IMG/VR virus record: IMGVR_UViG_3300027801_002650
Coordinates: 1-64,000 of that record
Source of the DNA: a virus
Reading direction: 5' to 3' (one strand)
Length of the DNA: 64,000 nucleotides
Position 1 is the stretch's first letter. Each line of letters opens with the position of its first letter. Below the pieces are notes generated by a model, which was not told where the DNA came from, made no database searches, and worked only from the letters and a program-made list of their open reading frames with translations. The translations under genes were made by a program, and so were the position numbers. Below, one piece after another: positions 12,363 to 34,672 of this stretch.

Positions 12363-13739
12363 ATGAATGATAATGTGATTGAATGGGGATTAAGTTTTGG
12401 ATCCCATGACTCGGCTATTTCGGTATTTATTAATGATCAACTTGTCTTTGCTACAGAAGGCGAAAGATGGTCCGGAATCAAGCACGATAAACAACTCCCT
12501 CCTAACCTCCTCAATTTCCTCAGAACAACTTACGGTAAACCTGCTAAAATATACTATTTTGAGGACCACTACAAAAAGGAACATCGGCGCAAAGAAGCAG
12601 GTCAACCTTCTAAACCGAAACCATCCATCTGGAACGGCAACGATGTCTTTCACTATGATTCCTGGATTCTTACTGGTCATCATCAATCACATGCTAGCTG
12701 GGGATATTATACTAGCCCATTTGATACATGCACCACCCTTGTTATCGACAGTATCGGCGAATGGGATACAATGTCTGTATGGAAATGCGCAAATGGAAAA
12801 ATGACAAAAATATCTGGATGGACTTACCCACAATCATTAGGACTGATGTATACTGCCGCAACCATAGCAGGTGGATGGAGAGGCAACGACGAAGAATACA
12901 AAATGATGGGTGCATCTGCCTTAGGGAATGGTGACAAAGAATACAATATCCTGAAAGAACTATTTGATTCAAAATACAACTTTCACAAAGGATGGGTATA
13001 TGAGGGTGATAGGTTTGAAATTGCTGCTGGTGCCCAGAAACTATACGAAAAGTGGTTACATAACATAACAACGAACATAACTGGCCCCATAGTTTTGACT
13101 GGGGGATGCGCACTCAATGTACGAGCAAACATGCTGATCAAAAATGATCTGTACGTACCACCTGCCCCGAATGATGCTGGATCAGCAATAGGTTGTGTCT
13201 TAGCGCATAAGAAACAAAAACTTGACATTTCTCCCTATCTAGGGTATAATATAATGAAGCCAATTGTTTTAGAGGAAATAGGTAAAGAATTGACAGACGA
13301 CGGCATAGTTGGAGTTGCACATGGTAAATGTGAGTTTGGGCCAAGAGCACTGGGTAACAGATCTATACTAGCCAATCCTAGAAAAAGGCACTGGAAAGAA
13401 AGACTGTGCAAGATAAAGAACCGAAGCAGTTGGAGACCATTTGGTTGCATCGTGAAAGAAGAAGACGTAAATAAGTATTTCTTGCGTGGAAAACCTTCCC
13501 CTTATATGAATACATGCTTCTTTGCCAACCAGAATATGAATGATTTTCCTGTAGAATTATTGCACGAAGATCAAACTGTTAGAGTGCAAACAATAACTTC
13601 TGACCATTACCTTTATCCTCTCCTCAACGACTTCCCAGTCCTAATAAACACGTCACTAAATATAAACGGGAAGCCAATCTGTAATAATGAGCAAGATGTG
13701 GAAGATTTCAAACGGGAAACAGGTATCGCTGTCCTATAA
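12363..13739 (+). CDS. carbamoyltransferase (NodU/CmcH/TobZ family)
   Basis: HDSA, HHQSHA, DSIGEW, SLGLMY, EYKMMG, GGCALN, DAGSAIG, EFGPRALGNRSILA, RVQT, NTSLN..GKPI. Confidence 0.93.
   Translation: MNDNVIEWGLSFGSHDSAISVFINDQLVFATEGERWSGIKHDKQLPPNLLNFLRTTYGKPAKIYYFEDHYKKEHRRKEAGQPSKPKPSIWNGNDVFHYDSWILTGHHQSHASWGYYTSPFDTCTTLVIDSIGEWDTMSVWKCANGKMTKISGWTYPQSLGLMYTAATIAGGWRGNDEEYKMMGASALGNGDKEYNILKELFDSKYNFHKGWVYEGDRFEIAAGAQKLYEKWLHNITTNITGPIVLTGGCALNVRANMLIKNDLYVPPAPNDAGSAIGCVLAHKKQKLDISPYLGYNIMKPIVLEEIGKELTDDGIVGVAHGKCEFGPRALGNRSILANPRKRHWKERLCKIKNRSSWRPFGCIVKEEDVNKYFLRGKPSPYMNTCFFANQNMNDFPVELLHEDQTVRVQTITSDHYLYPLLNDFPVLINTSLNINGKPICNNEQDVEDFKRETGIAVL
13222..13250 (+). promoter_or_regulatory. 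intragenic sigma70-type promoter
   Basis: aaaaacTTGACAtttctccctatctagggTATAAT, a perfect consensus with 17-bp spacer inside the carbamoyltransferase inter-domain linker. Confidence 0.75.
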
Positions 13740-14229
13740 TGAGATTGAGACCAATGATGTCCTAGAAATAGAAAACTTTTGGGTTCCATATTGGAAACAA
13801 CGAAGGTATATTAACTACGACATCAACTATCTTAAAATAGATAGAATGGAGACTTGTTTCATTTATAGAAATCATGGCGAGTTCTGTATGATGTCGGGTG
13901 TTGATGACATAAGCAATTTTATCCCGAATACATACAGAATATTAGTACGGGCAACCACAACACAATATGCCCCCAAAGTCTGGGGAAAGTACGTTGAAGA
14001 AAGATTTTTCTCAAATGTGGTCGCGGGAATCTCGTTAGATTGGTGCTTAGAAAAAGGCAAAGAAGTAGTAATCACAACAAACGTTGATTCCAGAATAACA
14101 AAGGTTGTCAGACGCAGTAAAAGAAAATGGTTACATGAAAGATCAATCGAAAACATATATGGAGTCGATCAGGTTGTTTGGGATATTGATTATGAAAGAT
14201 GCATAGATGATAGAACAATTAGATTTTGA
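13687..14229 (+). CDS. hypothetical protein (possibly GNAT-like fold)
   Basis: Operonic ORF. The fold guess rests only on the alpha/beta pattern. Confidence 0.5.
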   Translation: MSKMWKISNGKQVSLSYNEIETNDVLEIENFWVPYWKQRRYINYDINYLKIDRMETCFIYRNHGEFCMMSGVDDISNFIPNTYRILVRATTTQYAPKVWGKYVEERFFSNVVAGISLDWCLEKGKEVVITTNVDSRITKVVRRSKRKWLHERSIENIYGVDQVVWDIDYERCIDDRTIRF

Positions 14230-14665
14230 CGTTGACATAGAGTTAGTCAAATCTGAAATAAGAAAAATAATACCCGAATACGATGATCAAATACTTTTGC
14301 AGACAGTCAAAGGTAAGGATCCTTTTTATGGAGCTAGAGCAGGCATCGAGTTTACTGAGGGCGAGTTTCAATTCTGTGAGTTCTTTTGGACTGAGATGAC
14401 ATACACTAATTCTATACTGGCAAAGTTTAAATTGGTGAGAAGCAGACTTATGAATCTAAAAAGTAAGACGTGCCTGTCGTATCACAAAGATCCTACGCCA
14501 AGATTTCATATGCCAATCATCACGAACGAAAGTTGTTTTTTAATTATAGACAAAAAAGTACACCACCTCCCCGTGGGTAAGTGTTATATTATCGATAGCA
14601 CTTTACCACACACAGCAGTTAACGCATCCTTCGAGGATAGACTACACATTATAGGAACAATATGA
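14207..14665 (+). CDS. Asp/Asn beta-hydroxylase-like 2OG-Fe(II) oxygenase (cupin)
   Basis: HKD...RFHMPIITN...HTAVNAS...RLHII: HxD...H facial triad plus terminal Arg. Confidence 0.8.
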   Translation: MIEQLDFDVDIELVKSEIRKIIPEYDDQILLQTVKGKDPFYGARAGIEFTEGEFQFCEFFWTEMTYTNSILAKFKLVRSRLMNLKSKTCLSYHKDPTPRFHMPIITNESCFLIIDKKVHHLPVGKCYIIDSTLPHTAVNASFEDRLHIIGTI

Positions 14666-15306
14666 ACGGATCATTTCGCAAAATGATAAAGGAGACGATA
14701 CACGAGTCTCAAAAATGTCAGAGAAACTGGGATCTATCAAAACATATCTCAGAAGAAGACAAACAACTGATCTTAGAATCGGCAACAAATTGCCCCTCAA
14801 AGCAAAACCTCAACTACTATAAATTACACGTTATTGAGGATCGGGGGACTATTGAGAAGATACATGAAAAGACCAAAGGATTTGGTCCAATCTACTTTGA
14901 TTACAATCCAGAACAAAGAGAAGAGAATGCTTATGACGCCAGCAAGTCGGGAGAAATGTATACTAACTCTCAGACCTTGGCTCAATTGCTTTTAGCATTT
15001 ACTAAGAACGATGAAGGGTTGATCGAAAGAGAAAACGATGATGACTATGACGAGGATCGTGCAATGGCAGTTGGTATTGCCGCAGGATACGTCAATGTCG
15101 TTGCCACTCAACTTGGATATGCTACAGGATGTTGCAAGTGTATGGACGGAGATGAGATCGAAGAGATTTTAGGAGAGTCACCTATTTTACTTATGGGTGT
15201 TGGCGTTCCTGATAAGACTCGTAATCGCAGAGAACATCACACTGAGGATTTTGTATTTCCGACTCTTAAGAAAATGAAGAATATCGAAACAGTAATACAT
15301 TCATGA
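14662..15306 (+). CDS. nitroreductase-family flavoprotein
   Basis: QRNWD, CPSKQN, AVGIAAGY...AT.LGYATGCC, LLMGVG.P. Confidence 0.8.
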   Translation: MNGSFRKMIKETIHESQKCQRNWDLSKHISEEDKQLILESATNCPSKQNLNYYKLHVIEDRGTIEKIHEKTKGFGPIYFDYNPEQREENAYDASKSGEMYTNSQTLAQLLLAFTKNDEGLIERENDDDYDEDRAMAVGIAAGYVNVVATQLGYATGCCKCMDGDEIEEILGESPILLMGVGVPDKTRNRREHHTEDFVFPTLKKMKNIETVIHS

Positions 15307-15605
15307 TTCTGACAAATAGTATTATTAAAGTCAAGGGTGAGTTCGAAAGTAAAGAAGAAATAAAAAAGTATCTCTATAGTTTTATAGAAGATCACCCTTT
15401 CCGAAAATACAATCAGGAAATAGCAGACGAATTTGGAGAAGAATTGTTCTCTATGACATTTGTTCCGAAGGACACAGTTGTTTTAACCCAACGTTATCCT
15501 TCTGAAAAACATTACATAATAGCGAAACATTTCAGAGACGACATTATAGAAGTAATGAAAGATATCGTTGAATATTACGAACCAAGTGATCCAATATTGG
15601 TATAG
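15303..15605 (+). CDS. hypothetical protein
   Basis: ATGA overlap with the upstream stop codon; 100 aa. Confidence 0.65.
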   Translation: MILTNSIIKVKGEFESKEEIKKYLYSFIEDHPFRKYNQEIADEFGEELFSMTFVPKDTVVLTQRYPSEKHYIIAKHFRDDIIEVMKDIVEYYEPSDPILV

Positions 15606-15607
15606 TT

Positions 15608-16840
15608 ATGAAATTATGTATTATAGGAGGTAGCACTGCTGGTTGGTGGACTGCTGGATATTTTGAGAAACATATGCCCGATTGGGACATAACATTATAT
15701 GATTCCCCGAATATACCAGGATTAGGTGTTGGCGAATCAACTTTACCGCAACTCAAATGGTGGTGGGAAGAGTTAGGAATACAAGAAAAAGATTGGGTCA
15801 AAGAATCCAATGCTGTTTTAAAATATGGCAACTACAAAGAAGGGTGGAACGCACCCGAATTTGATAAACCATTCGTGACTCGCTTTTGGTTCAACGACGA
15901 TAATAAGTTTGACCAAATGATGGCAGACCCAGCCAACTTTGATAAGAATGGAAAGATAATCGAGGAAAACTTCTATAAGGAATTTGACTCCCCTGACTCT
16001 AGGTCAGATTATGCTTACCATGTTTGCGCAGAATCTGCTGCCGATATAGTAAGACAATCTTGTACACAAACTAAATACATTGAGGAAGAGGTGGATGAAT
16101 TGCCACCAGGTTTTGATTTGTATGTTGACGCAACAGGGTTTAAGCGAAAGTTTGTACAAGATTTTACAAAAATGAGTATTTCAGATTATCATTTTGTGGA
16201 TTCTGCTTGGGTTTGCCCCATGGAGAAATCTCCCAATGATGCTGATGTAACAAAATCAATTGCGAGAAAATATGGTTGGACGTTTGAAGTCAATTTACAG
16301 AATCGCGTGGGCATGGGTTATATACATTCAAGCAGTCACGTTAATAAAGAGGAAGCACTCAAAGAGTTTCGGGAAATTTATGGGGCACTTAATAGAACAC
16401 CCTTGTCCCCACAAGGAGGAGAAAGATTCATAAAGTGGGATCCAATGATCCTACAGAATCCCTGGTCAGACAATGTAGTTGCAATAGGAACATCTTCTGG
16501 TTTTGTAGATCCTCTTGAAGCAACTGCGTTGTTTATGACGCAAAGTGGTATTACGCAATTAGCGAATACTATCAAAAGAGGATACAGCAAGAAATCTTAC
16601 AATCGTGTGATGCGAAGAATATGGAATGACGGACTTAGATTTCAGCTGGCACACTACACTTTGAGCAGTCGAACGGATACACAGTTTTGGCTCGACTCAC
16701 AAAAAGGTGCCGACGAAAAATTTATCTGGGATAATTATCAAAAATACAGTGGCTCATATCAATGGATATTCCCAGATGGGATTTGGTGTCAACTGGGTAT
16801 ATACTTAAATAAAATGGAACACTATGCTCCTAAACTTTAA
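15608..16840 (+). CDS. tryptophan halogenase-family flavin-dependent enzyme
   Basis: IIGGSTAG, GVGEST, AVLKYG (catalytic-Lys position), AYH, DATGF, GFVDPLEAT, HYTLS.RTDT.FW. Confidence 0.88.
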   Translation: MKLCIIGGSTAGWWTAGYFEKHMPDWDITLYDSPNIPGLGVGESTLPQLKWWWEELGIQEKDWVKESNAVLKYGNYKEGWNAPEFDKPFVTRFWFNDDNKFDQMMADPANFDKNGKIIEENFYKEFDSPDSRSDYAYHVCAESAADIVRQSCTQTKYIEEEVDELPPGFDLYVDATGFKRKFVQDFTKMSISDYHFVDSAWVCPMEKSPNDADVTKSIARKYGWTFEVNLQNRVGMGYIHSSSHVNKEEALKEFREIYGALNRTPLSPQGGERFIKWDPMILQNPWSDNVVAIGTSSGFVDPLEATALFMTQSGITQLANTIKRGYSKKSYNRVMRRIWNDGLRFQLAHYTLSSRTDTQFWLDSQKGADEKFIWDNYQKYSGSYQWIFPDGIWCQLGIYLNKMEHYAPKL

Positions 16841-17048
16841 TCACTTAGCTGAGTCAAACTCATCCTACTGGCACCACTTCAAATACTCAGGGTTGTGTAC
16901 AATGTGTGCTGGTGCAGTATTTTTGCTAGGAATAGTTCATACATTTTTTCCGTTTATCGGTGACTGGTGGACAATTAGACTGTCAGAGAAAATATCAAAA
17001 ATAACATATGAACAATTTGGATATAAGAAACTACAAAAAAGAGACTGA
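16824..17048 (+). CDS. small membrane protein (DUF6356-like)
   Basis: HL....SYWHH...hydrophobic...VHTFFPF pattern. Confidence 0.55.
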   Translation: MLLNFNHLAESNSSYWHHFKYSGLCTMCAGAVFLLGIVHTFFPFIGDWWTIRLSEKISKITYEQFGYKKLQKRD

Positions 17049-17964
17049 GGAAATCATTCGTAAGTGGGAAAGAAAAGAGGATTTCACTTATTATACGTCA
17101 GGGTCAACAGGGGTGCCCAAGAAAATAACACATTCCTGGAAATTGATGACAGCTGTTGCTGAGGAGAATTGCCTCTATAATAACTATACAAAGAATGATG
17201 TAATAGTAAACGCATGCCTTCCAGCATCCTCAATCGGATATCCAGTTCTTTCTGTTTTACCTGCTTTGCTGACAGGATGCAGGTTGCAAACAATTGAGTT
17301 TAATCCTTATTCATATCTTGATGTGGTAAAGGAAGCAACTCATATGTTTATTCTTCCAGCAGTGTATAGAGTTATTAAAAAAACTGATAAATGGAAAAAA
17401 TTTGATTGTACTGGGAAAATAGTATCTTGTGGTGCTGACATTGTACCCGAGGGAATCAAGGAAGACGTTTTATCAAAAGGTGCTAAGAAGTTCCATCATT
17501 TATATGGATCGACAGAAGTGCCTCCTGCGATTTCCGACTCAGAAGATGAAAGACAGATCGGCCAAAACCTTTCGCCTTTGATTGATTACTATGTCGAGAA
17601 TGATGAACTGTTTATCAAATGGAAAAGTCAGGAATCATATTGGCAATCTGGGGACTTGGTCGATGAGAACATGAGAGTAACAGGCAGAAAGAAAAATATC
17701 CTAGCATTGAACTGTTCTCGCATACAACCTGAGACCATTGAGAGATACGTACTGGATAACACCAACGTAAATAAATGCCTGCTTACAACCAAAAAAGACA
17801 AGGTATGGATGTATTTTGATGGTGACGAAGAAAATGATGTTGTTAAAGAAAGGGTACAGGAGTGGTATAAAGATTCTCCTGTCACAGTAAAAAAAGTTGG
17901 CAAAATATTAGTCAACAAAATGAATAAACTAATAAGAACCGCACAGTACGAAGGAGTTTCATGA
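17008..17964 (+). CDS. short AMP-binding (ANL) adenylate-forming ligase
   Basis: YTSGSTGVPK, YGSTE, SGDL, GRKKN and a C-terminal Lys motif. Confidence 0.85.
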   Translation: MNNLDIRNYKKETEEIIRKWERKEDFTYYTSGSTGVPKKITHSWKLMTAVAEENCLYNNYTKNDVIVNACLPASSIGYPVLSVLPALLTGCRLQTIEFNPYSYLDVVKEATHMFILPAVYRVIKKTDKWKKFDCTGKIVSCGADIVPEGIKEDVLSKGAKKFHHLYGSTEVPPAISDSEDERQIGQNLSPLIDYYVENDELFIKWKSQESYWQSGDLVDENMRVTGRKKNILALNCSRIQPETIERYVLDNTNVNKCLLTTKKDKVWMYFDGDEENDVVKERVQEWYKDSPVTVKKVGKILVNKMNKLIRTAQYEGVS

Positions 17965-18725
17965 TCGGTTTTATCAATATAGTCAAATGTCTTATTGAAG
18001 ATTATAAGGTGGATAACGCATTTGATCTAGAACAGCTGATTCTCTTAAAACGAGAACATAATATGCAATTCTCGAATATGGGGGAGCCACCTACAAAGTT
18101 CGTTTATTATGACGAAGACCTAAAAGAATATAATATGATATTCATGTATCTCAGAGAAGCAGATATGATTGAGCAATATGTTGATTCCGTTAAGGATTCA
18201 GGGCAAACCAAATTTCCAGAAGAGTATATTGTTTCAAGATATGGCTCAATGTCAGACCTGAATGTTGCGATTAGACCTATCGACATTCCTGACACTCTTA
18301 TTTCAAAGATGAGGGCAACTTTAGAGTTAGGGCACATTAGATGGTCTGACAAAAAGAGATTTGCTAGCATTGATATTTCTACCGAAGATAAGTTTGTTAA
18401 GTGGATAAATACTAATGAGATAGATAAGATTTGGACAACCATACCAGAGGAATTGGATGGTGAAAACAAAGCAGAGCAATTTGAAATCTGGATTAGTCAA
18501 AAAGGAATAGCACTCAACGTTGAGTATCAAGTGAATGCTGATAACGATAACGTGAGATATTCTAAAGACCAAGAACAAATATCAGATGTGGTTCCTGCTG
18601 GTCTTAGTTTATACCAGGACGAACTCAAACAAGTTATTGATCAAGCAAAAACTGCTAAATTTTCTGATGAATTCTTTTCAGCATTAACTGGCGCAGGTGC
18701 AACAGTAGACAAAACACAATTTTGA
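17961..18725 (+). CDS. hypothetical protein
   Basis: ATGA-coupled ORF of 254 aa; no motif recognised. Confidence 0.7.
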   Translation: MIGFINIVKCLIEDYKVDNAFDLEQLILLKREHNMQFSNMGEPPTKFVYYDEDLKEYNMIFMYLREADMIEQYVDSVKDSGQTKFPEEYIVSRYGSMSDLNVAIRPIDIPDTLISKMRATLELGHIRWSDKKRFASIDISTEDKFVKWINTNEIDKIWTTIPEELDGENKAEQFEIWISQKGIALNVEYQVNADNDNVRYSKDQEQISDVVPAGLSLYQDELKQVIDQAKTAKFSDEFFSALTGAGATVDKTQF

Positions 18726-19801
18726 GCAAATATTTTTGTGCATCACCTTTTACCAGAATGACCAGGTCTCCGAATGGTGACCTGAGAACCTGCGTGTATT
18801 CCCCACCTTTAGAGGGAGAATACACAAACATTCTTAGTGCTTTCAAGTCTGACGAAATGGAGACAATTCGCCAAGAGATGAGAGACGGTAAACGAAGACC
18901 TGAATGTGAGTGGTGTTATTTTTATGATGAATCCAACCAATATTCCTGCCGACAAGACATAAACGAACGATACCCAGAACCACCATCTACACAGTTACGA
19001 GAATTAGATTTTGCTGCCTCAAACAAGTGCAACTACATTTGCGTAACTTGTGACGAGTCTGCTTCATCTGGATGGGAACAGAGAAACAAAGAATTTAGAT
19101 TTGCTGCTAATGAAATCAAACATAAATTACCTGCTGACCTATCAGGGATTAGCAATCTAAAACAATTAACAATCATGGGTGGTGAGCCAACTATTGAACC
19201 TTACTACACTAATGAGTTCTGGGATTTGATCGAGAGTAAGACAGACAAGAACTTGTGGTTCCAGATGGTCACAAACTGCTCAGCATTCCCCAGCAAAAGA
19301 TGGATGGATTTTCTCTCGGGTCTTGAGCATGTCAGCATAGGAATATCGTTAGACGGCATAGGAGAAGTCGGAGAGTTCTGCCGACTAGGTTGGAAAGAAC
19401 GACCTTGGCGCAAAAACTTTTTGAAATGGATGAAGTTTTTTGATAGAGGATATGAGCTTGGGTCAAGGCATGACGGACCTTGGATAAATATTGTACTTAG
19501 CAATTATAATATATTATTCAGTGCTAAGACTTTGAAATACGTTTCAGAGTTTGGTATGAGGCATCGAGTCATGCTCACAACTGCCTTTGAACCTGACTAC
19601 CTCTGTCCTGCATATCTTCCCGATAAATTTAAAGAAGAAATAGAGTTAATGGAGTATTTTGACGACAATCATCGAGACTTTGTTATTGACGTGTTAAAAA
19701 CAGGTGAGTACAGCGAACCTGTGTATAAGAAGTTCCAAGACTACACTAAATATTTAAACGCATTTGTGAAAGTACCAGAACCATGTCTACATTTTGTATG
19801 A
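18722..19801 (+). CDS. radical SAM protein with N-terminal twitch/SPASM-like domain
   Basis: CNYICVTC and GGEP; N-terminal CASPF...TC...CEWC. Confidence 0.9.
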   Translation: MSKYFCASPFTRMTRSPNGDLRTCVYSPPLEGEYTNILSAFKSDEMETIRQEMRDGKRRPECEWCYFYDESNQYSCRQDINERYPEPPSTQLRELDFAASNKCNYICVTCDESASSGWEQRNKEFRFAANEIKHKLPADLSGISNLKQLTIMGGEPTIEPYYTNEFWDLIESKTDKNLWFQMVTNCSAFPSKRWMDFLSGLEHVSIGISLDGIGEVGEFCRLGWKERPWRKNFLKWMKFFDRGYELGSRHDGPWINIVLSNYNILFSAKTLKYVSEFGMRHRVMLTTAFEPDYLCPAYLPDKFKEEIELMEYFDDNHRDFVIDVLKTGEYSEPVYKKFQDYTKYLNAFVKVPEPCLHFV

Positions 19802-20931
19802 GTCCATTCGTAAGAATGACGCAATGGTGGAATGGTAATCTTAATACCTGCACTCATTATGGTGAAATGTCTGGTGACGGGACTGACATTGAGAAACAGG
19901 TGTTCATACCCGATGGTAAATATGATAGCCTCGCAGAAGCATTCGAGGGTGAAGAGATGGAAGACCTCAGACAGAAAATGCTGAACGGCAAGAAGCTCGA
20001 GGGATGCCGTTACTGTTATCATTTAGAATCTTTAGGACTCATGAGTTTGAGGGAGAGCATCAACTCCTGCTATGATGTTTCTGCAAGAAAAAAAGAGTTG
20101 AAGGAAATAGAGATTTATCCTTCAAACAAATGCAACTTTAGATGTACTATCTGTAACTCAGAAGCAAGCAGTGTATGGGGGAATACCACAATGCAAACTC
20201 CTGGAAGAATTCCTTCAAATCCATATATGCTTGACGGACTTGGTGATATGAATTTGATTACTATCTCAGGTGGTGAGCCAATTATCATGCCAGATTATGA
20301 TGGAGACTTCTTTGAGGGCAGGTCTACGAAAATGTTCACGATGGCAACCAATAACTCAGTATTTCCTAGTGACCAGTTCTTTGAGTTCTTGGAAAGGTGT
20401 GAGGATATTTTAATATATCTTAGTTTGGACGGTATAGGGGAAGTTGGAGAATGGTGTCGCAAGGGTTTGAAGATGTCGAGATTTGAGAGGAATATGTACA
20501 AATGGCAACACTGGTTTGAGAATAGTAAGTTTGAGAGAAAGGGTAATCCTGATTACAAACTGCGACCACCTTACCTTACTGGTCTGAGAATAATGTATGT
20601 GATGCAACCATATAATATTCTAAATATGTATGAGACTCTAGAATGGGCAGAAGAACACGACATTATTTTAGATATGAGAAATTGCTACTCGCCAGAAAAA
20701 TTGAATGTTGCCTACTTGCCCGATAGTATTAAGAATGATATTATGCAGGAAACAAAATTCTACAACGACGACCATAGAGAGTTCGTTGAGAAAATACTTG
20801 CATCTGCTAAATATGATGAGAGCAGGACAAGAGACTTTATAGAGTATACAAAATACTTGATGGTGCTTGACGAAATACCTAGTCAATCATTGGAGATTTA
20901 TAAAAAATGTTTGGATATAATCTCAGATTGA
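19783..20931 (+). CDS. radical SAM protein with N-terminal twitch/SPASM-like domain
   Basis: CNFRCTIC and GGEP; N-terminal CMSPF...TC...CRYC. Confidence 0.9.
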   Translation: MSTFCMSPFVRMTQWWNGNLNTCTHYGEMSGDGTDIEKQVFIPDGKYDSLAEAFEGEEMEDLRQKMLNGKKLEGCRYCYHLESLGLMSLRESINSCYDVSARKKELKEIEIYPSNKCNFRCTICNSEASSVWGNTTMQTPGRIPSNPYMLDGLGDMNLITISGGEPIIMPDYDGDFFEGRSTKMFTMATNNSVFPSDQFFEFLERCEDILIYLSLDGIGEVGEWCRKGLKMSRFERNMYKWQHWFENSKFERKGNPDYKLRPPYLTGLRIMYVMQPYNILNMYETLEWAEEHDIILDMRNCYSPEKLNVAYLPDSIKNDIMQETKFYNDDHREFVEKILASAKYDESRTRDFIEYTKYLMVLDEIPSQSLEIYKKCLDIISD

Positions 20932-21512: not shown

Positions 21513-21519
21513 AAAAATT

Positions 21520-22005
21520 ATGGAATTTCAGTTTGAAGTAAGAAGCAAAATATACCCAAGCAAAACCTGGGACACCACCGACCAGTTCTGTATCGATCAT
21601 GATCATTCTATACCAATGCATTATCAAAAACGCATACTTGAAATAGCATCGGAGTATGGCGTTTACAGAAAAATAGAAATGCTAAACGACGGCAAGGGCA
21701 TGAAGTTGTATGCTCGTCTACCTTCCCCAACAATGTTTTCTGAATGGCTAGCCAAAAGAATAGACTATTTCTATGAGGCAAAGAACTCAGAAACAGAAGA
21801 AGACATGGAGGGAGAGATCCCTTATTTTCCAAACTCTTTTCAAAAACGATGCTGGCATTTGTCAAACTTCTCTCCCTTGATTCCCTACGATATTTTTTGG
21901 GAGAATGTGCATAAAGCATTTGACCTCGCAGAACACGAATGCAAACTCAACTTAGACACTTTCAATGTTACAGCAAAAAAGGCATATCATGACCTTTATT
22001 CCTAA
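21520..22005 (+). CDS. hypothetical protein
   Basis: Operonic ORF of 161 aa. Confidence 0.7.
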   Translation: MEFQFEVRSKIYPSKTWDTTDQFCIDHDHSIPMHYQKRILEIASEYGVYRKIEMLNDGKGMKLYARLPSPTMFSEWLAKRIDYFYEAKNSETEEDMEGEIPYFPNSFQKRCWHLSNFSPLIPYDIFWENVHKAFDLAEHECKLNLDTFNVTAKKAYHDLYS

Positions 22006-25682: not shown

Positions 25683-26398
25683 CTGTCGATATTTATGGCG
25701 ATAGTTTCTCCTGTCCCTGCTGCAAAACTGACGAAAAAGACACCTACCTCGATATACTATCCGATCAATTTTTATTGGACAATACATCAAAGCATGGTGT
25801 TGGTGCACAATGGTGCGTTGAGAAGTTTATGGCAAGACAGTCTCATGGTGATTTTCTTTTATTCTGTCTGCCAGATGCACAAAGACTGTGGTTACAATAT
25901 TTACCGGACTACATGGCTAGCCAGTCAAACAAAATATATGCCATGATGAAGGCAAATAACATGGACTTTCCTGAAGAACTGGAAGAGTTGGCAGTTGAAG
26001 AAGCACCTAAAATATTTAAGGACTATGAAGGATACTACAACACAGGCATGCACAGAATTTTTGAGGTCTTGGCTTCGAGTTTTATTTTGTCAAAGGCGAA
26101 ACATTACAAGAAGGTTTTGATATGGCCATCGTCTGGCTCAGGTTTTCCTTTTCGTAACTATAACCACGCATTAGAAATACCTTCTAATGTACTCATGGTT
26201 CCGAAGTCCTTGACATTCATATCCCAATTCGAAATAAATAATAAAACAAATCAGCCACATTTTGATTTTGATACTAGAAGCAATCACTTGTCACATGCAA
26301 ATCACATTGTCCTTGCTAAGCAGATATCACAGTTTTTCTTGACAAACAAACACCCTGACATTATGGAATTTAAAAGATATATCTATGGAATGCAATAG
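25634..26398 (+). CDS. SGNH/GDSL-like protein (putative hydrolase or acyltransferase)
   Basis: N-terminal YGDSFS, S..GVG, and C-terminal NHLS..NH. Likely start is ATG 25673. Confidence 0.5.
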   Translation: MHTRYCSRRRKKEMALTVDIYGDSFSCPCCKTDEKDTYLDILSDQFLLDNTSKHGVGAQWCVEKFMARQSHGDFLLFCLPDAQRLWLQYLPDYMASQSNKIYAMMKANNMDFPEELEELAVEEAPKIFKDYEGYYNTGMHRIFEVLASSFILSKAKHYKKVLIWPSSGSGFPFRNYNHALEIPSNVLMVPKSLTFISQFEINNKTNQPHFDFDTRSNHLSHANHIVLAKQISQFFLTNKHPDIMEFKRYIYGMQ

Positions 26399-27422
26399 AC
26401 TAAAGGGATACTTAGATCTTAGTCAAGCAGATGGCAGAGTCACACCATGCTGTTTGTTTGATATAGCTACAGGATGGAACTCAAACATTTATACAGGTGT
26501 CGATTTTTCTGAATGGTCAAATCCTGTCAAAAAAGGTTGCTGGCCTTGTGTAGAAAATGAATCTAATGGCCATGAGTCAATGCGACAGACTGCCGTTGCA
26601 GAAGGCATACAAATTGCCCTTGACTTTACGTGTAACTTCATGTGCCGTATTTGTCGACCTGCCTTGTCATCAAAATGGGATTCGGTCGACGAGGACTGGA
26701 CTCGGTTTGATAAAGACCATTTTTACAAGGATCCAAACAGAAAACGATTCGCTAATGAGCAAGAACGATTTCTAAACCTTGTAGATCTCTCAGAAATGAA
26801 AGAAGTCCGAATCGTGGGCGGAGAACCTTTCCTTTCAAAAAAATTAGTACCATTTCTTAAAAGACTGCCCAAGTCTGCCAAAGTTGATATAAATACTAAT
26901 GCTAGCATTTTCCCAGATGATGCAACAATCAAAGAACTGGAAAAGTTTGATTCTGTTCAAATAGACGCAAGCATTGATGCCGTCGGGGAGCTAGCCGAGT
27001 GTATTAGGTTTGGTACTATCTGGTCTGAGGTAGAGAAAAATATTAACAGACACATATCACTTTGGGATACTTACATTTATACTACTATCTCAGTTTTGAA
27101 TGTGAACAATCTAAATGAAGTATATGACTTTGCTGGTGGAGATGAATACCACGGAGGCAAAAGCAGAATGAATCCCTTGATTACACCAACCTTCCTACGA
27201 CTTGAACAGATACCACAAAACATAAGAAAATCATGGGGCATAAAATCACTGAGAGGCATGGGTGATTTTAACAATATTATTTGTAATGAAACTGAAGTAA
27301 AACCTGAGCATAAGAAATGTATAGACTTTATACAAACTTGCGATAAACATCAGGGAATACTTTTTCAAAATGTAAATAAAGAAATGTGGGAAATATTATG
27401 GACATTAGCATACCCAAAGTAA
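26385..27422 (+). CDS. radical SAM protein with N-terminal twitch-like domain
   Basis: CNFMCRIC and GGEP; N-terminal C...PCC...CWPC. Confidence 0.9.
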   Translation: MECNRLKGYLDLSQADGRVTPCCLFDIATGWNSNIYTGVDFSEWSNPVKKGCWPCVENESNGHESMRQTAVAEGIQIALDFTCNFMCRICRPALSSKWDSVDEDWTRFDKDHFYKDPNRKRFANEQERFLNLVDLSEMKEVRIVGGEPFLSKKLVPFLKRLPKSAKVDINTNASIFPDDATIKELEKFDSVQIDASIDAVGELAECIRFGTIWSEVEKNINRHISLWDTYIYTTISVLNVNNLNEVYDFAGGDEYHGGKSRMNPLITPTFLRLEQIPQNIRKSWGIKSLRGMGDFNNIICNETEVKPEHKKCIDFIQTCDKHQGILFQNVNKEMWEILWTLAYPK

Positions 27423-28198
27423 CAACCCGTTATACTGATAAAATAATGCAGGAGTTGCATGATATAAGATTTTTCGATGATTCCGATGAGATGAAGAAAC
27501 GTCAATCGACACTCAAAATCAAAGAAGAGTTTGTTGAAATTCCTGTAAAAACAATCGGCATGTGGATGTCAGGTGGTGCCGACAGTTCCCTCTGTGCCTG
27601 GATGATAAACAAAAAGATTCGCGATGAAAATCTTGATATAAAATTCCAACCAATGTCTGTTCGTAGAGGAAGACCATCAAATCCTATCTATGCTGGCAAC
27701 GTTATCGATTTTATAGAGGGTGACCTAAATATTACAATGAATGATCACATCATTTATTATCCAGACATTGCAGATGAGTACCAAAGAGAAATAAAGGAGT
27801 TTAGAGACAGAGACGTTGAGAACTTCAACTCTGGATTAATCGAGATTATGTATTCAGGAATAACCTCAAATCCCCCTGATAATGATATGAGTATTTTTGT
27901 AGACAAAAAATGTGAACCTACGAGAAACGAGTCGGCTGAGAAACCTCTAGAATCAGTTAGTGGACTAGCTCATTATATAAATCCCTTTTTTCAAATAAAC
28001 AAAAAAGATATTAAAACTCTTTATGATGATTTCAAATTGACCTACACATTATTTCCTATCACCAGAAGTTGCGAAGGTGATCCAGAAGATACTGGAAATC
28101 TTTCATATCATTGCGGAAAATGCTGGTGGTGTGAAGAAAGAATGTGGGCATTTGGATTTTTAGATAATCCTCCTCCCCAATATATTTATGATAATTGA
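27386..28198 (+). CDS. QueC-like PP-loop ATPase
   Basis: SGGADS PP-loop, NPF...NKK and TRSC...HCGKCWWC Zn site. Confidence 0.75.
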   Translation: MGNIMDISIPKVTTRYTDKIMQELHDIRFFDDSDEMKKRQSTLKIKEEFVEIPVKTIGMWMSGGADSSLCAWMINKKIRDENLDIKFQPMSVRRGRPSNPIYAGNVIDFIEGDLNITMNDHIIYYPDIADEYQREIKEFRDRDVENFNSGLIEIMYSGITSNPPDNDMSIFVDKKCEPTRNESAEKPLESVSGLAHYINPFFQINKKDIKTLYDDFKLTYTLFPITRSCEGDPEDTGNLSYHCGKCWWCEERMWAFGFLDNPPPQYIYDN

Positions 28199-29612
28199 TA
28201 AAGATCCTACCAATCTACCCTCAAAAACTTTCTGTGCTTTACCTTGGATGCACGTATCCACACGACCGAATGGCCACATGCGTGTTTGCTGTACAGCAAA
28301 CGCATCAGGTGTTCAGAATAAAGACTCAACAAAAAAGACTCTCTCAGAGGCAGGTGTACTCAGAAGAGATGATGGTCTTCCAGCAAATCTAGCAACGACA
28401 AGTTTGCTTGATGCTTGGAACAACGAATACATGAGGTCAGTTCGCAAAATGATGCTTAATGGTGAAAAACCTCCCTCATGCTTGAAATGCTTTAAGGAAG
28501 AAGATGCAGGACACAGAAGCAAACGACAATGGGAAACTGCCAAGTGGGTAGGAGAACTCGGACTCGACGATATCATCGGAGAAACAAACGAGGATGGCTC
28601 CGTACCTCCAAGAGTCAGGTACATTGATTTACGTTTGGGCAGTAAGTGTCAGTTGGCTTGTGTTATGTGTTCTCCTCATGATTCTTCTAAATGGGTAAAG
28701 GAATATAAAGAAATCTACCCTGATCTAAAGAACGAACGACTACGCGACTCACAACTCTGGGAAAAAGACTCCGGAAAGTTGGCATGGTCAGGTGGCTCGT
28801 ATGCTTGGCACAAATCAAATCCTACATTCTGGGATGAGTTTTGGACTCAGGTTCCTACGCTGAAACAACTGTACTGGGCAGGTGGCGAATCATTGATTAT
28901 GGATGAGCACTACATGGTGCTTGAGAAGATCATTGAAATGGGGCATGCTAAAGATATAGAACTACGATACAACTCAAATGGTCTCGAATGGGAACCACAC
29001 TTGTTTGATTTATGGAAAGAATTTAGAAATGTAATTTTTCATTTCAGCATTGACTGTCATGAGGAGAAAAACCATTTCATTCGATACCCATCTAATTGGG
29101 AACAAGTCGTGACCCAAATGGAAGCACTTGATGATTACCCGCACGGCAACTTGAGACTTACTACAGCCACGACAATCATAGCTCTCAATTTGTTTTATCT
29201 TCCCGATTTTATCAAATGGAAACTGAGCAAACAATGGAAGCTGTTAAACAAGTTTCCTGCTGGAGCAGGCATGATAGATTTACATCTTGCCTACTGGCCA
29301 CCTCAATTAAACTGCAAGGTACTGCCAAAGTGGTTCAAGATGGAGGTAACCGAAAAGTTTAATGAGTTCTATCCTTGGCTTGAAGAAAACTGGCAAAAAT
29401 GCAATGGCGTAGAAAATCTGTCATTTACAGAGTGGCGTGAACTGCCATACGGCATAAAAAGACTTGAGGGACTTGTTTCATTTATGAACTCGGAGGACTG
29501 GTCTGAACGATTGCCCGAAACTGCAGAGTGGTGTTATACCATAGCAAAAAGAAGAAAACTTGATTTTTTGAAAATCTTTCCTGACCTCGAATGGCTACAA
29601 TGGTATGCTTAA
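28188..29612 (+). CDS. radical SAM protein with N-terminal twitch domain
   Basis: CQLACVMC and GGES; N-terminal CALPW...VCC...CLKC. Confidence 0.92.
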   Translation: MIIDKDPTNLPSKTFCALPWMHVSTRPNGHMRVCCTANASGVQNKDSTKKTLSEAGVLRRDDGLPANLATTSLLDAWNNEYMRSVRKMMLNGEKPPSCLKCFKEEDAGHRSKRQWETAKWVGELGLDDIIGETNEDGSVPPRVRYIDLRLGSKCQLACVMCSPHDSSKWVKEYKEIYPDLKNERLRDSQLWEKDSGKLAWSGGSYAWHKSNPTFWDEFWTQVPTLKQLYWAGGESLIMDEHYMVLEKIIEMGHAKDIELRYNSNGLEWEPHLFDLWKEFRNVIFHFSIDCHEEKNHFIRYPSNWEQVVTQMEALDDYPHGNLRLTTATTIIALNLFYLPDFIKWKLSKQWKLLNKFPAGAGMIDLHLAYWPPQLNCKVLPKWFKMEVTEKFNEFYPWLEENWQKCNGVENLSFTEWRELPYGIKRLEGLVSFMNSEDWSERLPETAEWCYTIAKRRKLDFLKIFPDLEWLQWYA

Positions 29613-30753
29613 TATAGAAAATATAGAAGACAAATCAAATCGTTATCAGATCATATGGGACCTCGGACGCAGGTGCTCATATGCCTGCTCATATTGCCCT
29701 CCTCACAGAAACAATAAGTGGTCTACATTTATTGACTATGAAAAACTATGCGACACCGTAGACAAGGTTGCTCAATATGCGTTACTGTATGATCAGTTTC
29801 GTAAAGTGCCTGCTATGAAAAAACTTAGTTTTACTGGCGGTGAGCCAACTGTTCATCCGGACTTTTTTAAATTCCTAAGATACGTAAAGACTACTTACCC
29901 CTTTTTCAGTAGAGGTCTGACTACAAATGGGTGGTTTTCGAATAGTGTTTTAGATAAAGTGATGTCCCTGACAACTGGTGGTACTCTGTCATATCATTGT
30001 GAATCAACAGATAAACAGAAAAAACAAGTAATAAGCAATGCTATCGTATTACGAGAAAAGTACAAGGTAAACGTAATGTTTCACAAAGATTACTTTTGGG
30101 AATGCGTAGATGTTTGCGAGACAATGGAGAAAAATGGTGTAGACTACGTACCACGAATCATAGGAGATGATCATCCCGATGATAAAAAGTCCATAGAGTT
30201 AGGTTATACACAGGTGTACGAAGAAGATCAAATGAAATGGTTTAGAGATTACTGGAAACAGAAAGGACAAAATGTTGCAGAATCAGGAAACACCCAAAAA
30301 GGATTGGGACGTCCCTGTTGCGGAGGCAGATGCTTTAAGGCAGACGGCAAGGATTCTTACTTTCTCCCTGATACAAACTTTCAGGGTTGGAGCTGTATGG
30401 TTAACTGGTATTTTCTTTTCATAAACTCAGAGGCAGATCGTGTATGGACTCATCAAACTTGTGGCGTAAATCTTGATGGAAAAGTTGCTCCTCTTGGAAA
30501 GATATCCGAGTTTGACGATATACTTGACAAACTCGGCGATTCATTGTATACTAGAAGGGTGCCAATGATTACGTGTCCGAAAACATTTTGTGGATGTGGT
30601 ATGTGCATCACAAAATCAAAAGACAATGTGAAAGAGATGTTTGACAGGCATACTGTCGATGAGTTGGACTTTGAGAAAGTATCACAAAAGAAAAGCAACT
30701 GGTTCACAGACGAAACAACGAAAAGGGTTTTTGAGAAGTTAGATGCTGTGTAA
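29605..30753 (+). CDS. radical SAM protein with C-terminal Cys-rich domain
   Basis: CSYACSYC, SFTGGEPT, TTNG; C-terminal PCC...FQGWSC...CPKTFCGCGMC. Confidence 0.92.
   Translation: MLNIENIEDKSNRYQIIWDLGRRCSYACSYCPPHRNNKWSTFIDYEKLCDTVDKVAQYALLYDQFRKVPAMKKLSFTGGEPTVHPDFFKFLRYVKTTYPFFSRGLTTNGWFSNSVLDKVMSLTTGGTLSYHCESTDKQKKQVISNAIVLREKYKVNVMFHKDYFWECVDVCETMEKNGVDYVPRIIGDDHPDDKKSIELGYTQVYEEDQMKWFRDYWKQKGQNVAESGNTQKGLGRPCCGGRCFKADGKDSYFLPDTNFQGWSCMVNWYFLFINSEADRVWTHQTCGVNLDGKVAPLGKISEFDDILDKLGDSLYTRRVPMITCPKTFCGCGMCITKSKDNVKEMFDRHTVDELDFEKVSQKKSNWFTDETTKRVFEKLDAV
30524..30552 (+). promoter_or_regulatory. intragenic sigma70-type promoter
   Basis: cTTGACAaactcggcgattcattgTATACT with a 17-bp spacer. 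Confidence 0.55.
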
Positions 30754-31696
30754 AATGCCTTTCACCCATTCTTTTATAGATGGGGAAACTATGAAACCTT
30801 GCTGTATGTTTGAAGGCGAGGGAGACGTACGGGAACAGTTTCTAGCAGGCATAAAACCTGAAGGATGCAAACCTTGTTTCGACAAAGAGGAACGTGGAGG
30901 AACCAGTTCGAGACAGTATTACAATCAACGATATGACTTTTTGCCTCTGGACAAAGTCAGAACCTTTGACCTGAGAATCGATGATGTATGTAATCTAAAG
31001 TGTGTTATGTGTGGACCTGATCAGTCTACCAAATGGAGAGAAGACATTGAGATATTCGATGAGTTTGTTGGTAGACCACTGTGGAACAGGAAAATACCAC
31101 TGCCAGATTTATCTGATGCATTAGAAATAAGCATCCTTGGTGGAGAACCATTCTATATGAGAACTGCTGAGAACATATTGAAAAAGCAGTCCCGAGACAC
31201 CCGCATTATTTTGAACACAAATGCTTGCATCGATGCAGACAACAAACTGCTGGGCATATTAAAAGAGTTTGATGTTGTTGAAATCGTAATATCGATTGAC
31301 GGGTACAAGCAAGTAAACGATTATATTCGTTTCCCATCAGAGTGGGATAAGTTTGAGTCTGGTATAGATATTATTTTTTCCCTCGACAATATTGAATATA
31401 AACCATTTAACACAACAGTCAGTTGCCTAAACCTGCCAGACCTTGATAATATCAAAAACTACACAAAGCAATACTCAGACTACAAACACTACATAAATTA
31501 TCTTACCGACCCAGACTTTTTGAGTATAAATGCTTTGCCACCGAAAGTCATAGAATACTGTGATGTTGACGTAGACTATGAGTTCGACAAAAAGTTGAAT
31601 CAAAAGATGAGAGCATACTTGAGTAAGTTAGACAAGAAAAGAAATACAAATAGCAAAAGGACATTACCATGGTGCTGGATCGACCATTCAGAATAG
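30743..31696 (+). CDS. radical SAM protein with N-terminal twitch domain
   Basis: CNLKCVMC and GGEP; N-terminal CKMPF...PCC...CKPC. Confidence 0.9.
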   Translation: MLCKMPFTHSFIDGETMKPCCMFEGEGDVREQFLAGIKPEGCKPCFDKEERGGTSSRQYYNQRYDFLPLDKVRTFDLRIDDVCNLKCVMCGPDQSTKWREDIEIFDEFVGRPLWNRKIPLPDLSDALEISILGGEPFYMRTAENILKKQSRDTRIILNTNACIDADNKLLGILKEFDVVEIVISIDGYKQVNDYIRFPSEWDKFESGIDIIFSLDNIEYKPFNTTVSCLNLPDLDNIKNYTKQYSDYKHYINYLTDPDFLSINALPPKVIEYCDVDVDYEFDKKLNQKMRAYLSKLDKKRNTNSKRTLPWCWIDHSE

Positions 31697-32634
31697 AGTT
31701 TGAGATAAGTTCTCTATGTAATGCTCTCTGCTCAGGTTGTCAACGAACAATGATGGACAACAGGGGAAAGTACTACTACAAAGGAAATATTACCATAGAC
31801 CAAATGACAGATTGGTTTGATGAGGTTGACTTGACTAATGCCAAAATTAAACTGTGTGGTGTGTTAGGTGACCCGATTGTCAACCCTGACTGCTATGAAA
31901 TATGTTCCTATTTGATGCTAGAGAAGAAAGTCAAAAGCATAGAAATATCTACCAATGGTGGTATGAGATCATCAAAGTTTTGGACTCAGTTAGGCGAGTT
32001 ATCAGCGATGAGCGGCAATCGTTTATATGTACATTGGTCAATAGACGGAGTTACCAAAAATGATTACAGAGAAAACGTAAACATCGACAAGGTCTGGGAA
32101 AACTTTCATACTTACTATAATGCTGGTGGTAAATGCATTTGGCAGTATATACATTTTGATTACAACGCAGACGAAATCCCTCTGGCAAAACAAAAAGCAA
32201 AAGAGTTAGGTGTTGAGTTAAAGATACGTGTCAGTTGGAGAAATACTGCTGATGCAGCAAAGTTTAAATCAAGCGAAGCACTAAAGATCGACGAAGACAT
32301 ATACGAGACAGTTGAGACTCGAGCACGCACGGGTGACTATGAGGCAGCAAATATTGTTTGTCGACATCAGTTAGAAAATGAGCTGTTCGTTACATCAGAA
32401 GGCAGAATATGGCCTTGCTGTCATTTACAAGATGAACAGGTTGCAGGCAAAACTGACATACTAACAAAAGTTGGTTTAAAAAATGATCTACAGCAGTCAA
32501 AATTTTACGACATTATTCAGTCTGAGTGGTATGAAAAAACACTGGCCGAGTCGTGGGAAAAATCACACCCTCTTCACCTACCCAGGTGCTATTTATCCTG
32601 TGGAGATTTTGCGAAAAGAAAAGTTATTAAATGA
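31669..32634 (+). CDS. radical SAM protein with C-terminal SPASM/twitch-like domain
   Basis: CNALCSGC, CGVLGDP, TNGG; C-terminal C...WPCC...CYLSC. Confidence 0.9.
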   Translation: MVLDRPFRIEFEISSLCNALCSGCQRTMMDNRGKYYYKGNITIDQMTDWFDEVDLTNAKIKLCGVLGDPIVNPDCYEICSYLMLEKKVKSIEISTNGGMRSSKFWTQLGELSAMSGNRLYVHWSIDGVTKNDYRENVNIDKVWENFHTYYNAGGKCIWQYIHFDYNADEIPLAKQKAKELGVELKIRVSWRNTADAAKFKSSEALKIDEDIYETVETRARTGDYEAANIVCRHQLENELFVTSEGRIWPCCHLQDEQVAGKTDILTKVGLKNDLQQSKFYDIIQSEWYEKTLAESWEKSHPLHLPRCYLSCGDFAKRKVIK

Positions 32635-33464
32635 TAGATAGTCCCGAAAGAGAATACACATTAGACTGGTTGCAGTATGAAAGACAGCAACCAATGTACG
32701 ATGAGAGCATCAATGATTTTTATGCTCGTATTTTTAAGGAAACTCCAGTTCACGCAAAAACTATTGACGTAGATTTTTTACATGCCTTTGACGAATGGTT
32801 GAGAAATCATCAGTTCAGCAGTTTTACAGGAATGGATGCATTCCCTGTCAGGCATGTCATACAGGGTGTCACACATTACATCGACGACCTGTATCAGACA
32901 TATGGTTCTTTGCAGATATTCAAAAATGATTATAAATACCACTGGCGACTGAACAATGAAATAGAGTATGCTACTATCGATACCCTGGATAAAAGGCACC
33001 TACTTATATCAATGCCGTTTCCTTACTACGGTGATATACATCCTGGCATGTACACAATACTCGATGCGTGTTATGAAAAGGGAATCCCTGTGCATGTTGA
33101 TGCTGCTTGGATTAGTTGCATACGCAATATTGATTTCAATTTTGACCACCCTGCTATTCAGACTTTTGCTATCAGTTTAAGTAAAGGAGGCATAGGTGGT
33201 TGTCGAATCGGTGTGAGATATGCACGATGGACAACTGAAGGACCTATCACATTAATGAATAAGTTTAACATGAATCAACAACCACTGATGTGGATTGGAA
33301 CACGTTTCATGAAGGAGTTTGGTCCAGAGTATTTTTGGAAAAAATATGAAAACAAATATAATCAAGTTCTTAAGGATTTCAAACTGCAACCATCAAAAGC
33401 AATACACCTTGCTATGAGCAACGGTAAACCTGTTGGTGTTCGATCACTGCTGAGGGCATTATGA
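32631..33464 (+). CDS. fold-type-I PLP-dependent enzyme (aminotransferase/decarboxylase-like)
   Basis: VHVDAAW (PLP Asp) and SLSK (Schiff-base Lys) followed by RIG. Confidence 0.7.
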   Translation: MIDSPEREYTLDWLQYERQQPMYDESINDFYARIFKETPVHAKTIDVDFLHAFDEWLRNHQFSSFTGMDAFPVRHVIQGVTHYIDDLYQTYGSLQIFKNDYKYHWRLNNEIEYATIDTLDKRHLLISMPFPYYGDIHPGMYTILDACYEKGIPVHVDAAWISCIRNIDFNFDHPAIQTFAISLSKGGIGGCRIGVRYARWTTEGPITLMNKFNMNQQPLMWIGTRFMKEFGPEYFWKKYENKYNQVLKDFKLQPSKAIHLAMSNGKPVGVRSLLRAL

Positions 33465-34672
33465 GTTGTATTCTACCTTGGATCAATTTTGGTACAAATA
33501 TTTACGGGCGACCGAGAGTCTGTGGTTACTCTAACATAAATGCACAATGGAAGCATATGTTTGAGAAAAGAGGTTTACCATGGCCACCTACTAAAATTGA
33601 AGACACCCCAAAGGAAATCCTTGAAAGTGACTTTGCCAAAGAGTTCCAGACTTGGAATGGTAAGTTAGAAAAGCATGGTGTAAAAGAGCAGTGGAACAAC
33701 ATTTATTTTAGAGAGATTCGTGAAACATTTTTGAATGGTGAGTGGCCAGCAAACTGTGGCAGATGTAAGCATGTTGAAGAGTTGGGTGGCAAGTCAAAAC
33801 GCATAGACGAAAATGATATGTGGCATGACGAAAATCTGATCGTAGAAACAGAATATCCAAAGCACATCGATGTAAGAACTGGTACAGTCTGCAACTTTAA
33901 ATGTATTCATTGTAGTCCAAATGTTAGCTCGAAATGGGTTGAGGACAAGGAAGTCGCCATAAAATATGGAACCGAATACGTAGAAAATGATAATACTTGG
34001 ATAGCAAAAGATAATGACTTTTGGAATCAACTTGACATTTCTCAAATAAAAAGGTATAATTTCTTAGGTGGTGAATCGTTTTATAATAAAAGACATAACG
34101 AGTTTATCAAAAAACTGAATGAAAGCGAGTATGCGAATGAAATAGAAATCGCTTACGTCACCAATGGTTCGTTCAGATTTGAGAATATGGAAAACTTCAA
34201 AAAGGTAAGACTGAGATTGTCTGTTGACTGTGTAGAAACAGCAGGGGAATATTTTCGTTATGGATTAAAATGGGATGATTGGTGTGAAAACATTAAAAAA
34301 TTTCCGTCAAACTTTGACACATCCTTTCAATGGACTTGCAGTAATGTAAGCATGTTCTACTTAGTAGATACCTACAAGTTATTGCGCAAACAGTTTCCTG
34401 ACATTAGATTTTTGTTTGAGAATCATGTAACAGAACCCTACTATATGTCAGCACAAAATCTGCCCAGTAGCATCAAAGAAAAAATCAGTGACGAAATTGA
34501 TTTTGAAATAGATCCTTTTTACGTTAATTATATGTTTAAAAAAGATGGATGGTCAGAAAAAGGTGAAACTTTTATTAACTATCTAAACGATTTAGATAAA
34601 GCAAGAAAAACCAATTGGAGAAAAAGTCTGTGTGGTCTAGAGAAAGCATTGAGTGGATTGACGTTGAGCTAA
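33461..34672 (+). CDS. radical SAM protein with N-terminal twitch domain
   Basis: CNFKCIHC and GGES; N-terminal CILPW...VC...CGRC. Confidence 0.9.
   Translation: MSCILPWINFGTNIYGRPRVCGYSNINAQWKHMFEKRGLPWPPTKIEDTPKEILESDFAKEFQTWNGKLEKHGVKEQWNNIYFREIRETFLNGEWPANCGRCKHVEELGGKSKRIDENDMWHDENLIVETEYPKHIDVRTGTVCNFKCIHCSPNVSSKWVEDKEVAIKYGTEYVENDNTWIAKDNDFWNQLDISQIKRYNFLGGESFYNKRHNEFIKKLNESEYANEIEIAYVTNGSFRFENMENFKKVRLRLSVDCVETAGEYFRYGLKWDDWCENIKKFPSNFDTSFQWTCSNVSMFYLVDTYKLLRKQFPDIRFLFENHVTEPYYMSAQNLPSSIKEKISDEIDFEIDPFYVNYMFKKDGWSEKGETFINYLNDLDKARKTNWRKSLCGLEKALSGLTLS
34032..34060 (+). promoter_or_regulatory. intragenic sigma70-type promoter
   Basis: aacTTGACAtttctcaaataaaaaggTATAAT, a perfect consensus with the same flanks as the 13222 promoter. 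Confidence 0.75.

Follow-up and report, generated by a model that had tools for sequence, protein, structure and literature searches.

Candidate host-type promoters within enzyme genes of a radical SAM island in an uncultured marine T4-like phage

Known internal promoters and the two coding sites of the island

The class II/III promoters of phage T7 and the internal promoters of T4 (e.g., within gene 49) lie inside the preceding gene, usually near its 3' end, and are used by a phage polymerase or a late sigma factor. Intragenic sigma70 promoters are common in Escherichia coli, where they favour rare codons, AGG among them, and are kept out of frames that would place a stop codon in a hexamer (bioRxiv 10.1101/2020.01.04.894907); most of them are weak, and their conservation has not been demonstrated. 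In T4-type phages, sequences with the sigma70 consensus act as strong early promoters (PMC2839356), and the related elements termed PeSLs are intergenic, between small accessory open reading frames (ORFs), with an adjacent stem-loop (PMC2839356; PMC1524935). Here we examined two perfect sigma70-type sites, at positions 13222 and 34032, that lie inside enzyme genes of IMG/VR virus record IMGVR_UViG_3300027801_002650; the window is the first 64 kb of this 80,839-bp (80.8-kb) record, and the whole contig was scanned for sites. Judging from codon choice and its conservation in relatives, these are probably working promoters for the host housekeeping (sigma70-type) polymerase, written into the codons of the enzymes.

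The portal protein of the source phage is ~52% identical to gp20 of marine cyanomyophages, which identifies the contig as part of an uncultured marine T4-like myovirus. Most of the contig is taken up by structural genes on the - strand, and they flank a 29-kb island of 35 ORFs on the + strand (12363..41501), the products of which include a carbamoyltransferase, an Asp/Asn hydroxylase-like protein, a nitroreductase, a tryptophan-halogenase-like protein, an AMP-binding enzyme and many radical SAM enzymes (14 genes). Island genes abut or overlap, with the largest gap between consecutive ORFs being 7 nt when the longest-ORF starts are used. Because the island opposes the surrounding structural genes, it receives no read-through from them, and because it has no gap above 7 nt, any sigma70 promoter there must overlap coding sequence.

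Four perfect TTGACA-17-TATAAT sites were found in the contig, two of them intergenic on the - strand and two in the sense direction inside + strand ORFs. The site at 13222..13250 (TTGACA 13222-13227, 17 nt, TATAAT 13245-13250) lies in the first gene of the island, the carbamoyltransferase (12363..13739, + strand, 458 aa, Pfam Carbam_trans_N and Carbam_trans_C), where it spans residues 287-296, at the point where the N- and C-terminal domains meet; a C precedes its -35 and GG precedes its -10. That at 34032..34060 (TTGACA 34032-34037, 17 nt, TATAAT 34055-34060) lies in a radical SAM ORF (33461..34672, + strand, 403 aa, Pfam Radical_SAM), where it covers residues 191-200 just ahead of the GGES SAM-binding motif. 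Both host ORFs are genuine genes by their Pfam domains and homologues: the carbamoyltransferase homologues are full-length (450-460 aa), and the radical SAM protein has 165 homologues and six island paralogues. With 12/12 hexamer matches and a 17-nt spacer, both sites conform to the sigma70 type (17 ± 1 bp), and the predicted transcription starts fall near 13257 and 34067.

The two coding sites share more than their hexamers. CTTGACATTT occurs exactly five times on both strands of the contig, and each copy is followed after 17 nt by TATA[AC]T; these five comprise the two coding sites and three intergenic ones, at 338..366 (- strand, CTTGACATTT ... GGTATAAT), 977..1005 (- strand, with a TGG extended -10) and 1072..1100 (+ strand, an 11/12 site with TATACT). 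The 14-mer AACTTGACATTTCT is common to the 1072, 13222 and 34032 sites. GG stands directly ahead of the -10 in four of the sites and places G at -14, a key base of the extended -10 element in sigma70 promoters; both coding sites carry C at -36, T at -29 and G at -14, flanking bases that typify strong promoters. The first-pass annotation had reported the perfect 17-bp-spaced sites and the signature linking the coding to the intergenic ones, and every sequence was found as described, with CTTGACATTT restricted to these five places.

In comparison with the described systems, the sites are intragenic promoters of an already known kind and imply no new mechanism. As in T7 and T4, tight packing would force promoters into coding sequence and a long unit would be subdivided in time, but the sites here are host-type, stand 430-560 nt from the next gene and lie on conserved catalytic-domain motifs. 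Like the E. coli promoters they overlap coding sequence, use a stop-free frame (here xTT GAC A.. / TAT AAT) and employ a rare GGG or AGG codon that yields G at -14; unlike those, they belong to a phage, match the consensus perfectly (12/12), sit on conserved protein motifs and are conserved in orthologues amid largely randomised synonymous sites. With T4-type early promoters and PeSLs they share a host sigma70 consensus, a T4-like phage and an accessory, plastic gene region, and the intergenic sites at 338, 977 and 1072 fit the T4-type early class. PeSLs are intergenic with an adjacent stem-loop, whereas the 13222 and 34032 sites lie within ORFs of 458 and 403 aa, and 129-nt folds around all five sites were no more stable than shuffled sequences (z-scores of -0.57 to +0.70); intragenic position and lack of stem-loops rule out a PeSL cassette identity for the coding sites. 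What sets them apart is the perfect match to the consensus, their position on conserved catalytic-domain motifs and the codon-level conservation in uncultured phages.

Codon choice at the sites and in related phages

Chance occurrence was evaluated with 300 synonymous-codon permutations within each of 65 ORFs, which preserved the proteins and the codon usage of each gene. The real sequence has 2 perfect sense sites with a 17-nt spacer, whereas a shuffle had 0.03 on average and never more than 1; for this excess we calculate a Poisson P of ~4e-4, bearing out the earlier suggestion that two perfect matches were unlikely by chance. Two positions alone in the proteome are compatible with a perfect site under synonymous codon changes, and each carries one. 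From codon usage, the probability of each site is 0.027 for the 12 core bases and ~3e-4 when ATT, TCT and the GG-ending codon are added, giving joint probabilities for the pair of ~7e-4 for the cores and ~1e-7 with the shared extended signature. The uncommon codons needed are CTT (0.19-0.23), GGG (0.12) and AGG (0.13); TAT AAT is the preferred Tyr-Asn spelling in these AT-rich genomes.

The first-pass annotation had counted a further site as a third family member, that at 30524..30552 on the + strand in another radical SAM ORF (TTGACA 30524-30529, 17 nt, TATACT 30547-30552). It is one of two 11/12 sites that open with CTTGACA, the other being the intergenic 1072 site. The 11/12 class averaged 1.16 in shuffles against 1 observed, so this site is at chance level; it also lacks the TTT and GG signature, and in the one orthologue compared (L057) the corresponding hexamers read TTGATA and TACGAA. 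The 30524 site was accordingly dropped from the family as a probable chance look-alike. As a separate observation, 10/12 sense matches in the whole contig numbered 8 against a shuffle mean of 13.1, with 97.7% of shuffles giving at least 8. This deficit hints at mild avoidance of spurious promoters and is consistent with the general selection against spurious promoter motifs (PMC1939733).

In frame, the sites encode LDISPYLGYN (13222) and LDISQIKRYN (34032). That the same LDIS....YN pattern appears in unrelated proteins, as the first-pass annotation noted, is correct, but the peptide itself is not the signal: it belongs to motifs of both protein families, and many orthologues carry it without a -35. 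In the carbamoyltransferases, the C-terminal domain widely opens with the motif PYLGY[NED]I, and LD-I is common to the nearest homologues. LD-I..[YF]LGYN is found in P0122 (83% identity), P0123 (71%), P0125, P0126, P0127 and P0128, and four of these (P0122, P0123, P0125 and P0126) share the LDI..YN peptide at the protein level. Among the radical SAM proteins, LDISQIKRYNFLGGES is conserved in nearly all homologues down to ~50% identity and RYNFLGGE(S) further, down to 43%, while the island paralogues have a related D-[LIF]-S ... GGE[PS] motif. Since LDI.....YN is a conserved motif in both families, its amino acids need no promoter explanation; the choice of codons does.

For the carbamoyltransferase, DNA was compared between the window and two IMG/VR sequences, L096 and L097. 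These are 60-62% identical to the window protein at the amino acid level and use the same codon at only 45-49% of conserved residues, yet CTT GAC A.. ... GGG TAT AAT is identical in all three. The promoter-defining codons agree in 5/5 cases against a three-way baseline of 0.288 (P ~0.002), whereas in the spacer every conserved residue (Ile, Pro, Leu) has a different codon in L096/L097, and two further residues are themselves replaced. A pattern with the hexamers and G at -14 fixed and the spacer free is that predicted for a sigma70 promoter. Synteny is also kept in both relatives, with the carbamoyltransferase first and beside a divergent gp13-like gene. Among 29 more distant phage carbamoyltransferases with DAGSAIGCVLAHK the site was absent, the spelling being mostly GGA and AAC. 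Other searches gave no match for 23 kb of the island in GenBank phages (megablast) or for the carbamoyltransferase in a single-protein scan of IMG/VR, and a comparison of this protein with the genome collection returned a 26% identical bacterial homologue as its sole match.

For the radical SAM gene, codons were read in 14 IMG/VR orthologues and 69 metagenomic ones. TAT AAT is nearly universal among them. The perfect site is kept in the three closest relatives, L027-L029 (83-86% amino acid identity), which form a clade with the window and in which both hexamers and the GG are retained with synonymous changes in the spacer only. It is also present in L057 of the sister clade, the other two members of which lack it; there the spacer peptide is LDKVHIKRYN and the Arg codon is CGG rather than AGG, and TTGACA, GG and TATAAT are all kept. 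The four sequences of the window clade share 39.6% of their conserved degenerate codons (baseline 0.396), but over residues 185-201 they agree at 13 of 15 conserved codons (binomial 2.5e-4); the two that vary (TCT/TCC, AAA/AAG) fall in the spacer. The gene has two peaks of synonymous conservation, of which one is the promoter site and the other the overlap with the next gene. This second peak (residues 384-399; 34610-34677) coincides with the overlap (next-gene start at 34615 or 34630) and with a hairpin at 34659-34677. The synonymous-site conservation that had been proposed as a check on the sites is seen among the near relatives of both proteins, with promoter codons kept in L096/L097 and L027-L029 and changes falling in the spacer.

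The first 0.5 Mb of related loci (1 Mb over both strands) contained only six, all at the two orthologous positions, and the full contig behind L096 (28 kb) held no further one. The contig of a relative (G003, behind L001; 46.5 kb) has a single perfect site, CTTGACA-17-TATAAT, in the sense direction and the same frame but inside a different island radical SAM gene, where it encodes LDMYEWLRYN (L100 1501-1529, equivalent to L001 contig 45571-45599). The window orthologue of that gene (37146-38198, 42% identity) lacks the site and cannot encode one. These differences suggest that internal promoters may turn over between island genes across lineages. Cyanophage-like contigs contained five further perfect sites, three with a stop codon in the xTT GAC A.. 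frame and three with a TGn extended -10; these features are expected of ordinary phage promoters of this kind.

Late-type boxes and the proposed regulation

Two inverted CCCTAAATA boxes (12331..12358, both directions) lie in the 35 bp that separate the gp13-like gene from the island; they are likely to be T4-type late promoters, one per direction. Each intergenic gap of the structural genes has a copy of CCTAAATA (contig positions 6051, 57263 and 70202), and the junction has an inverted pair (12337 and 12352). CTAAATA is the reported late-promoter consensus of the T4-like phage Aeh1 (PMC1524935), a variant of the short TATAAATA-like box that marks T4-type late promoters just upstream of late genes; a box of this kind stands at the island start. 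The + strand junction box ends 4 nt ahead of the carbamoyltransferase ATG, the box itself lying 11 nt before the ATG; the same pair occurs in L096 and L097, further from the start codons. Every one of the 20 CTAAATA copies in the contig is oriented in the sense direction of the genes around it. The junction boxes stand back to back and leave almost no leader (4 and 10 nt), and in L096/L097 the pair is crossed with leaders of ~30 nt.

A late-type box thus lies ahead of the first island gene here and in relatives, and the two conserved host-type sites lie 0.86 kb and 21.7 kb into the island, so the architecture that the first-pass annotation had proposed is present. Its temporal split, in which the full carbamoyltransferase would be made late only and the downstream enzymes early, is plausible and fits this layout. 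Both this split and the further idea that Fe-S clusters might be loaded in advance draw on analogy with T4.

Internal promoters appear to be the most economical reading. The only non-coding DNA of the island is the 35-bp junction with its late-like boxes, and a host-type promoter serving the island has to sit in codons. Selection appears to have used the only two places where L-D-I-x5-Y-N allows a perfect TTGACA-17-TATAAT, fixing CTT, GAC, A.., a codon ending in GG, TAT and AAT. With starts near 13257 and 34067, each transcript would first include the 3' portion of the gene that houses the promoter, a leader of 0.4-0.55 kb, before reaching the downstream genes. Genes after the first would be expressed independently of late transcription and, by analogy with T4-type early promoters, probably earlier, and full-length carbamoyltransferase would depend on the late box. 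Shuffles, codon probabilities and codon conservation in orthologues together argue for selection rather than chance, and support the two perfect sites being dual-coding DNA under nucleotide-level selection.

Several points weigh against working internal promoters. The match to the host sigma factor is assumed, and protein function accounts for the conservation of both peptides. From the predicted transcription starts to the nearest downstream gene starts there are 430-560 nt, a long distance for a leader, and the hairpin at 34659-34677 is weakly terminator-like. The three carbamoyltransferase DNA sequences represent about two independent lineages. In about 45 radical SAM orthologues whose peptide is identical, Leu-Asp is written TTA GAT (or with CTG, TTG etc.) and the -35 is missing, and the radical SAM site has one or two origins in ~30 lineages where ~3-4% is expected from codon usage alone. 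Because the independent origins are close to this expectation, the conservation evidence for the radical SAM site appears real but moderate.

A rival view is that the sites are coincidental, with promoter-prone LDI.....YN peptides happening to receive promoter codons that close relatives inherited without function. Both peptides are family motifs (RYNFLGGES to 43% identity, PYLGYNI widespread), most same-peptide radical SAM orthologues lack the -35, TAT AAT is just the favoured Y-N spelling of these AT-rich genomes, and the third site is at chance level. We nevertheless consider coincidence quite unlikely, given the joint codon probabilities, the retention of hexamer and GG codons beside free spacer codons where synonymous sites are largely randomised, the change of Arg codon in L057 that still retains GG, and the absence of the 10-mer CTTGACATTT anywhere else in the contig. 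Selection might instead have maintained DNA that binds polymerase without productive starts, as sigma70-holoenzyme sinks or roadblocks on late read-through or as PeSL-like recombination patches. At a perfect consensus promoter polymerase is bound very firmly and its escape can be inefficient, which favours a sink or roadblock, and either role would suit the long leaders to the next genes and the different island positions of perfect sites in different relatives. All sites are in the sense direction with genes downstream, however, and a patch has further against it that none of the five sites has a stem-loop, that two are coding rather than intergenic, and that the shared homology amounts to only ~14 nt plus 8 nt; we regard non-productive binding as unlikely.

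It is very improbable that the 13222 promoter serves a separate C-terminal (YrdC-like) domain protein, as a gene within a gene. The site does lie between the N-terminal domain (to residue ~209 to 280) and the C-terminal domain (from residue 308), and it is conserved in orthologues. Against such an isoform, no conserved in-frame start with a ribosome-binding site lies downstream in the window, L096 or L097, and it was rejected on this ground; the in-frame ATG at 13254 precedes the predicted transcription start and has no counterpart in L096 or L097. The radical SAM site cannot act in this way, since a product starting there would lack the CxxxCxxC cluster motif.

Building on working internal promoters, it is possible, if tentative, that in this group of marine T4-like phages a gap-free accessory-gene island is controlled by host-type promoters that selection places in pre-adapted L-D-x-x5-Y-N motifs: the gene-1 site would be held while the proteins diverge to 60% identity, others would turn over among different radical SAM genes from lineage to lineage, the carbamoyltransferase would be late only and the downstream set expressed from the onset of infection. 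If true, this would be a case of long-term dual coding, of a catalytic-domain motif and a maximal-strength promoter, that times a phage biosynthetic pathway. Intragenic promoters are usually weak, poorly conserved and hard to separate from noise, and the signal here is unusually clean: the consensus is perfect, the sites are the only two that the proteome allows, and orthologues split protein from DNA constraint codon by codon, with the same-peptide orthologues that lack a -35 as a natural control. For this large, uncharacterised enzyme island of a phage, with its 14 radical SAM genes, the sites provide a concrete map of regulation, and the approach suggests a general route to functional promoters of uncultured phages from metagenomes alone.

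Intergenic promoters and neighbouring genes

The perfect - strand sites at 338 and 977 lie upstream of a 51-aa ORF (278-123) and of a 184-aa ORF (944-390) with a weak SprT-like match, respectively. The 1072 site, a strong promoter on the + strand, is followed by no + strand ORF and points in antisense at the RuvC-like gene (1766-1152) and the portal gene. The region downstream (to ~1800) had no Rfam match at the gathering score (best 20 bits, E 0.34, threshold 45) and its fold was no better than shuffles, and an RNA gene there was rejected. This promoter could make an antisense ('anti-late') RNA.

At the other end of the island, the last island gene (+) and the next gene (-) overlap convergently by 56 nt (41446-41501) without a terminator between them, and transcription out of the island would therefore enter the tail-fibre region antisense. 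Within the island, the radical SAM proteins encoded at 28188-29612 and 33461-34672 carry at their N-terminal end, ahead of the CxxxCxxC core, a Cys-rich SPASM-like segment; in the 474-aa radical SAM protein, Pfam places SPASM at residues 16-101, whereas the usual architecture has this domain at the C-terminus. Past the window end, one - strand ORF spanning contig positions 57269-67906 encodes 3,545 aa, far above the typical size of T4 baseplate or fibre proteins, and its neighbours are ORFs of 2,061 and 1,554 aa.

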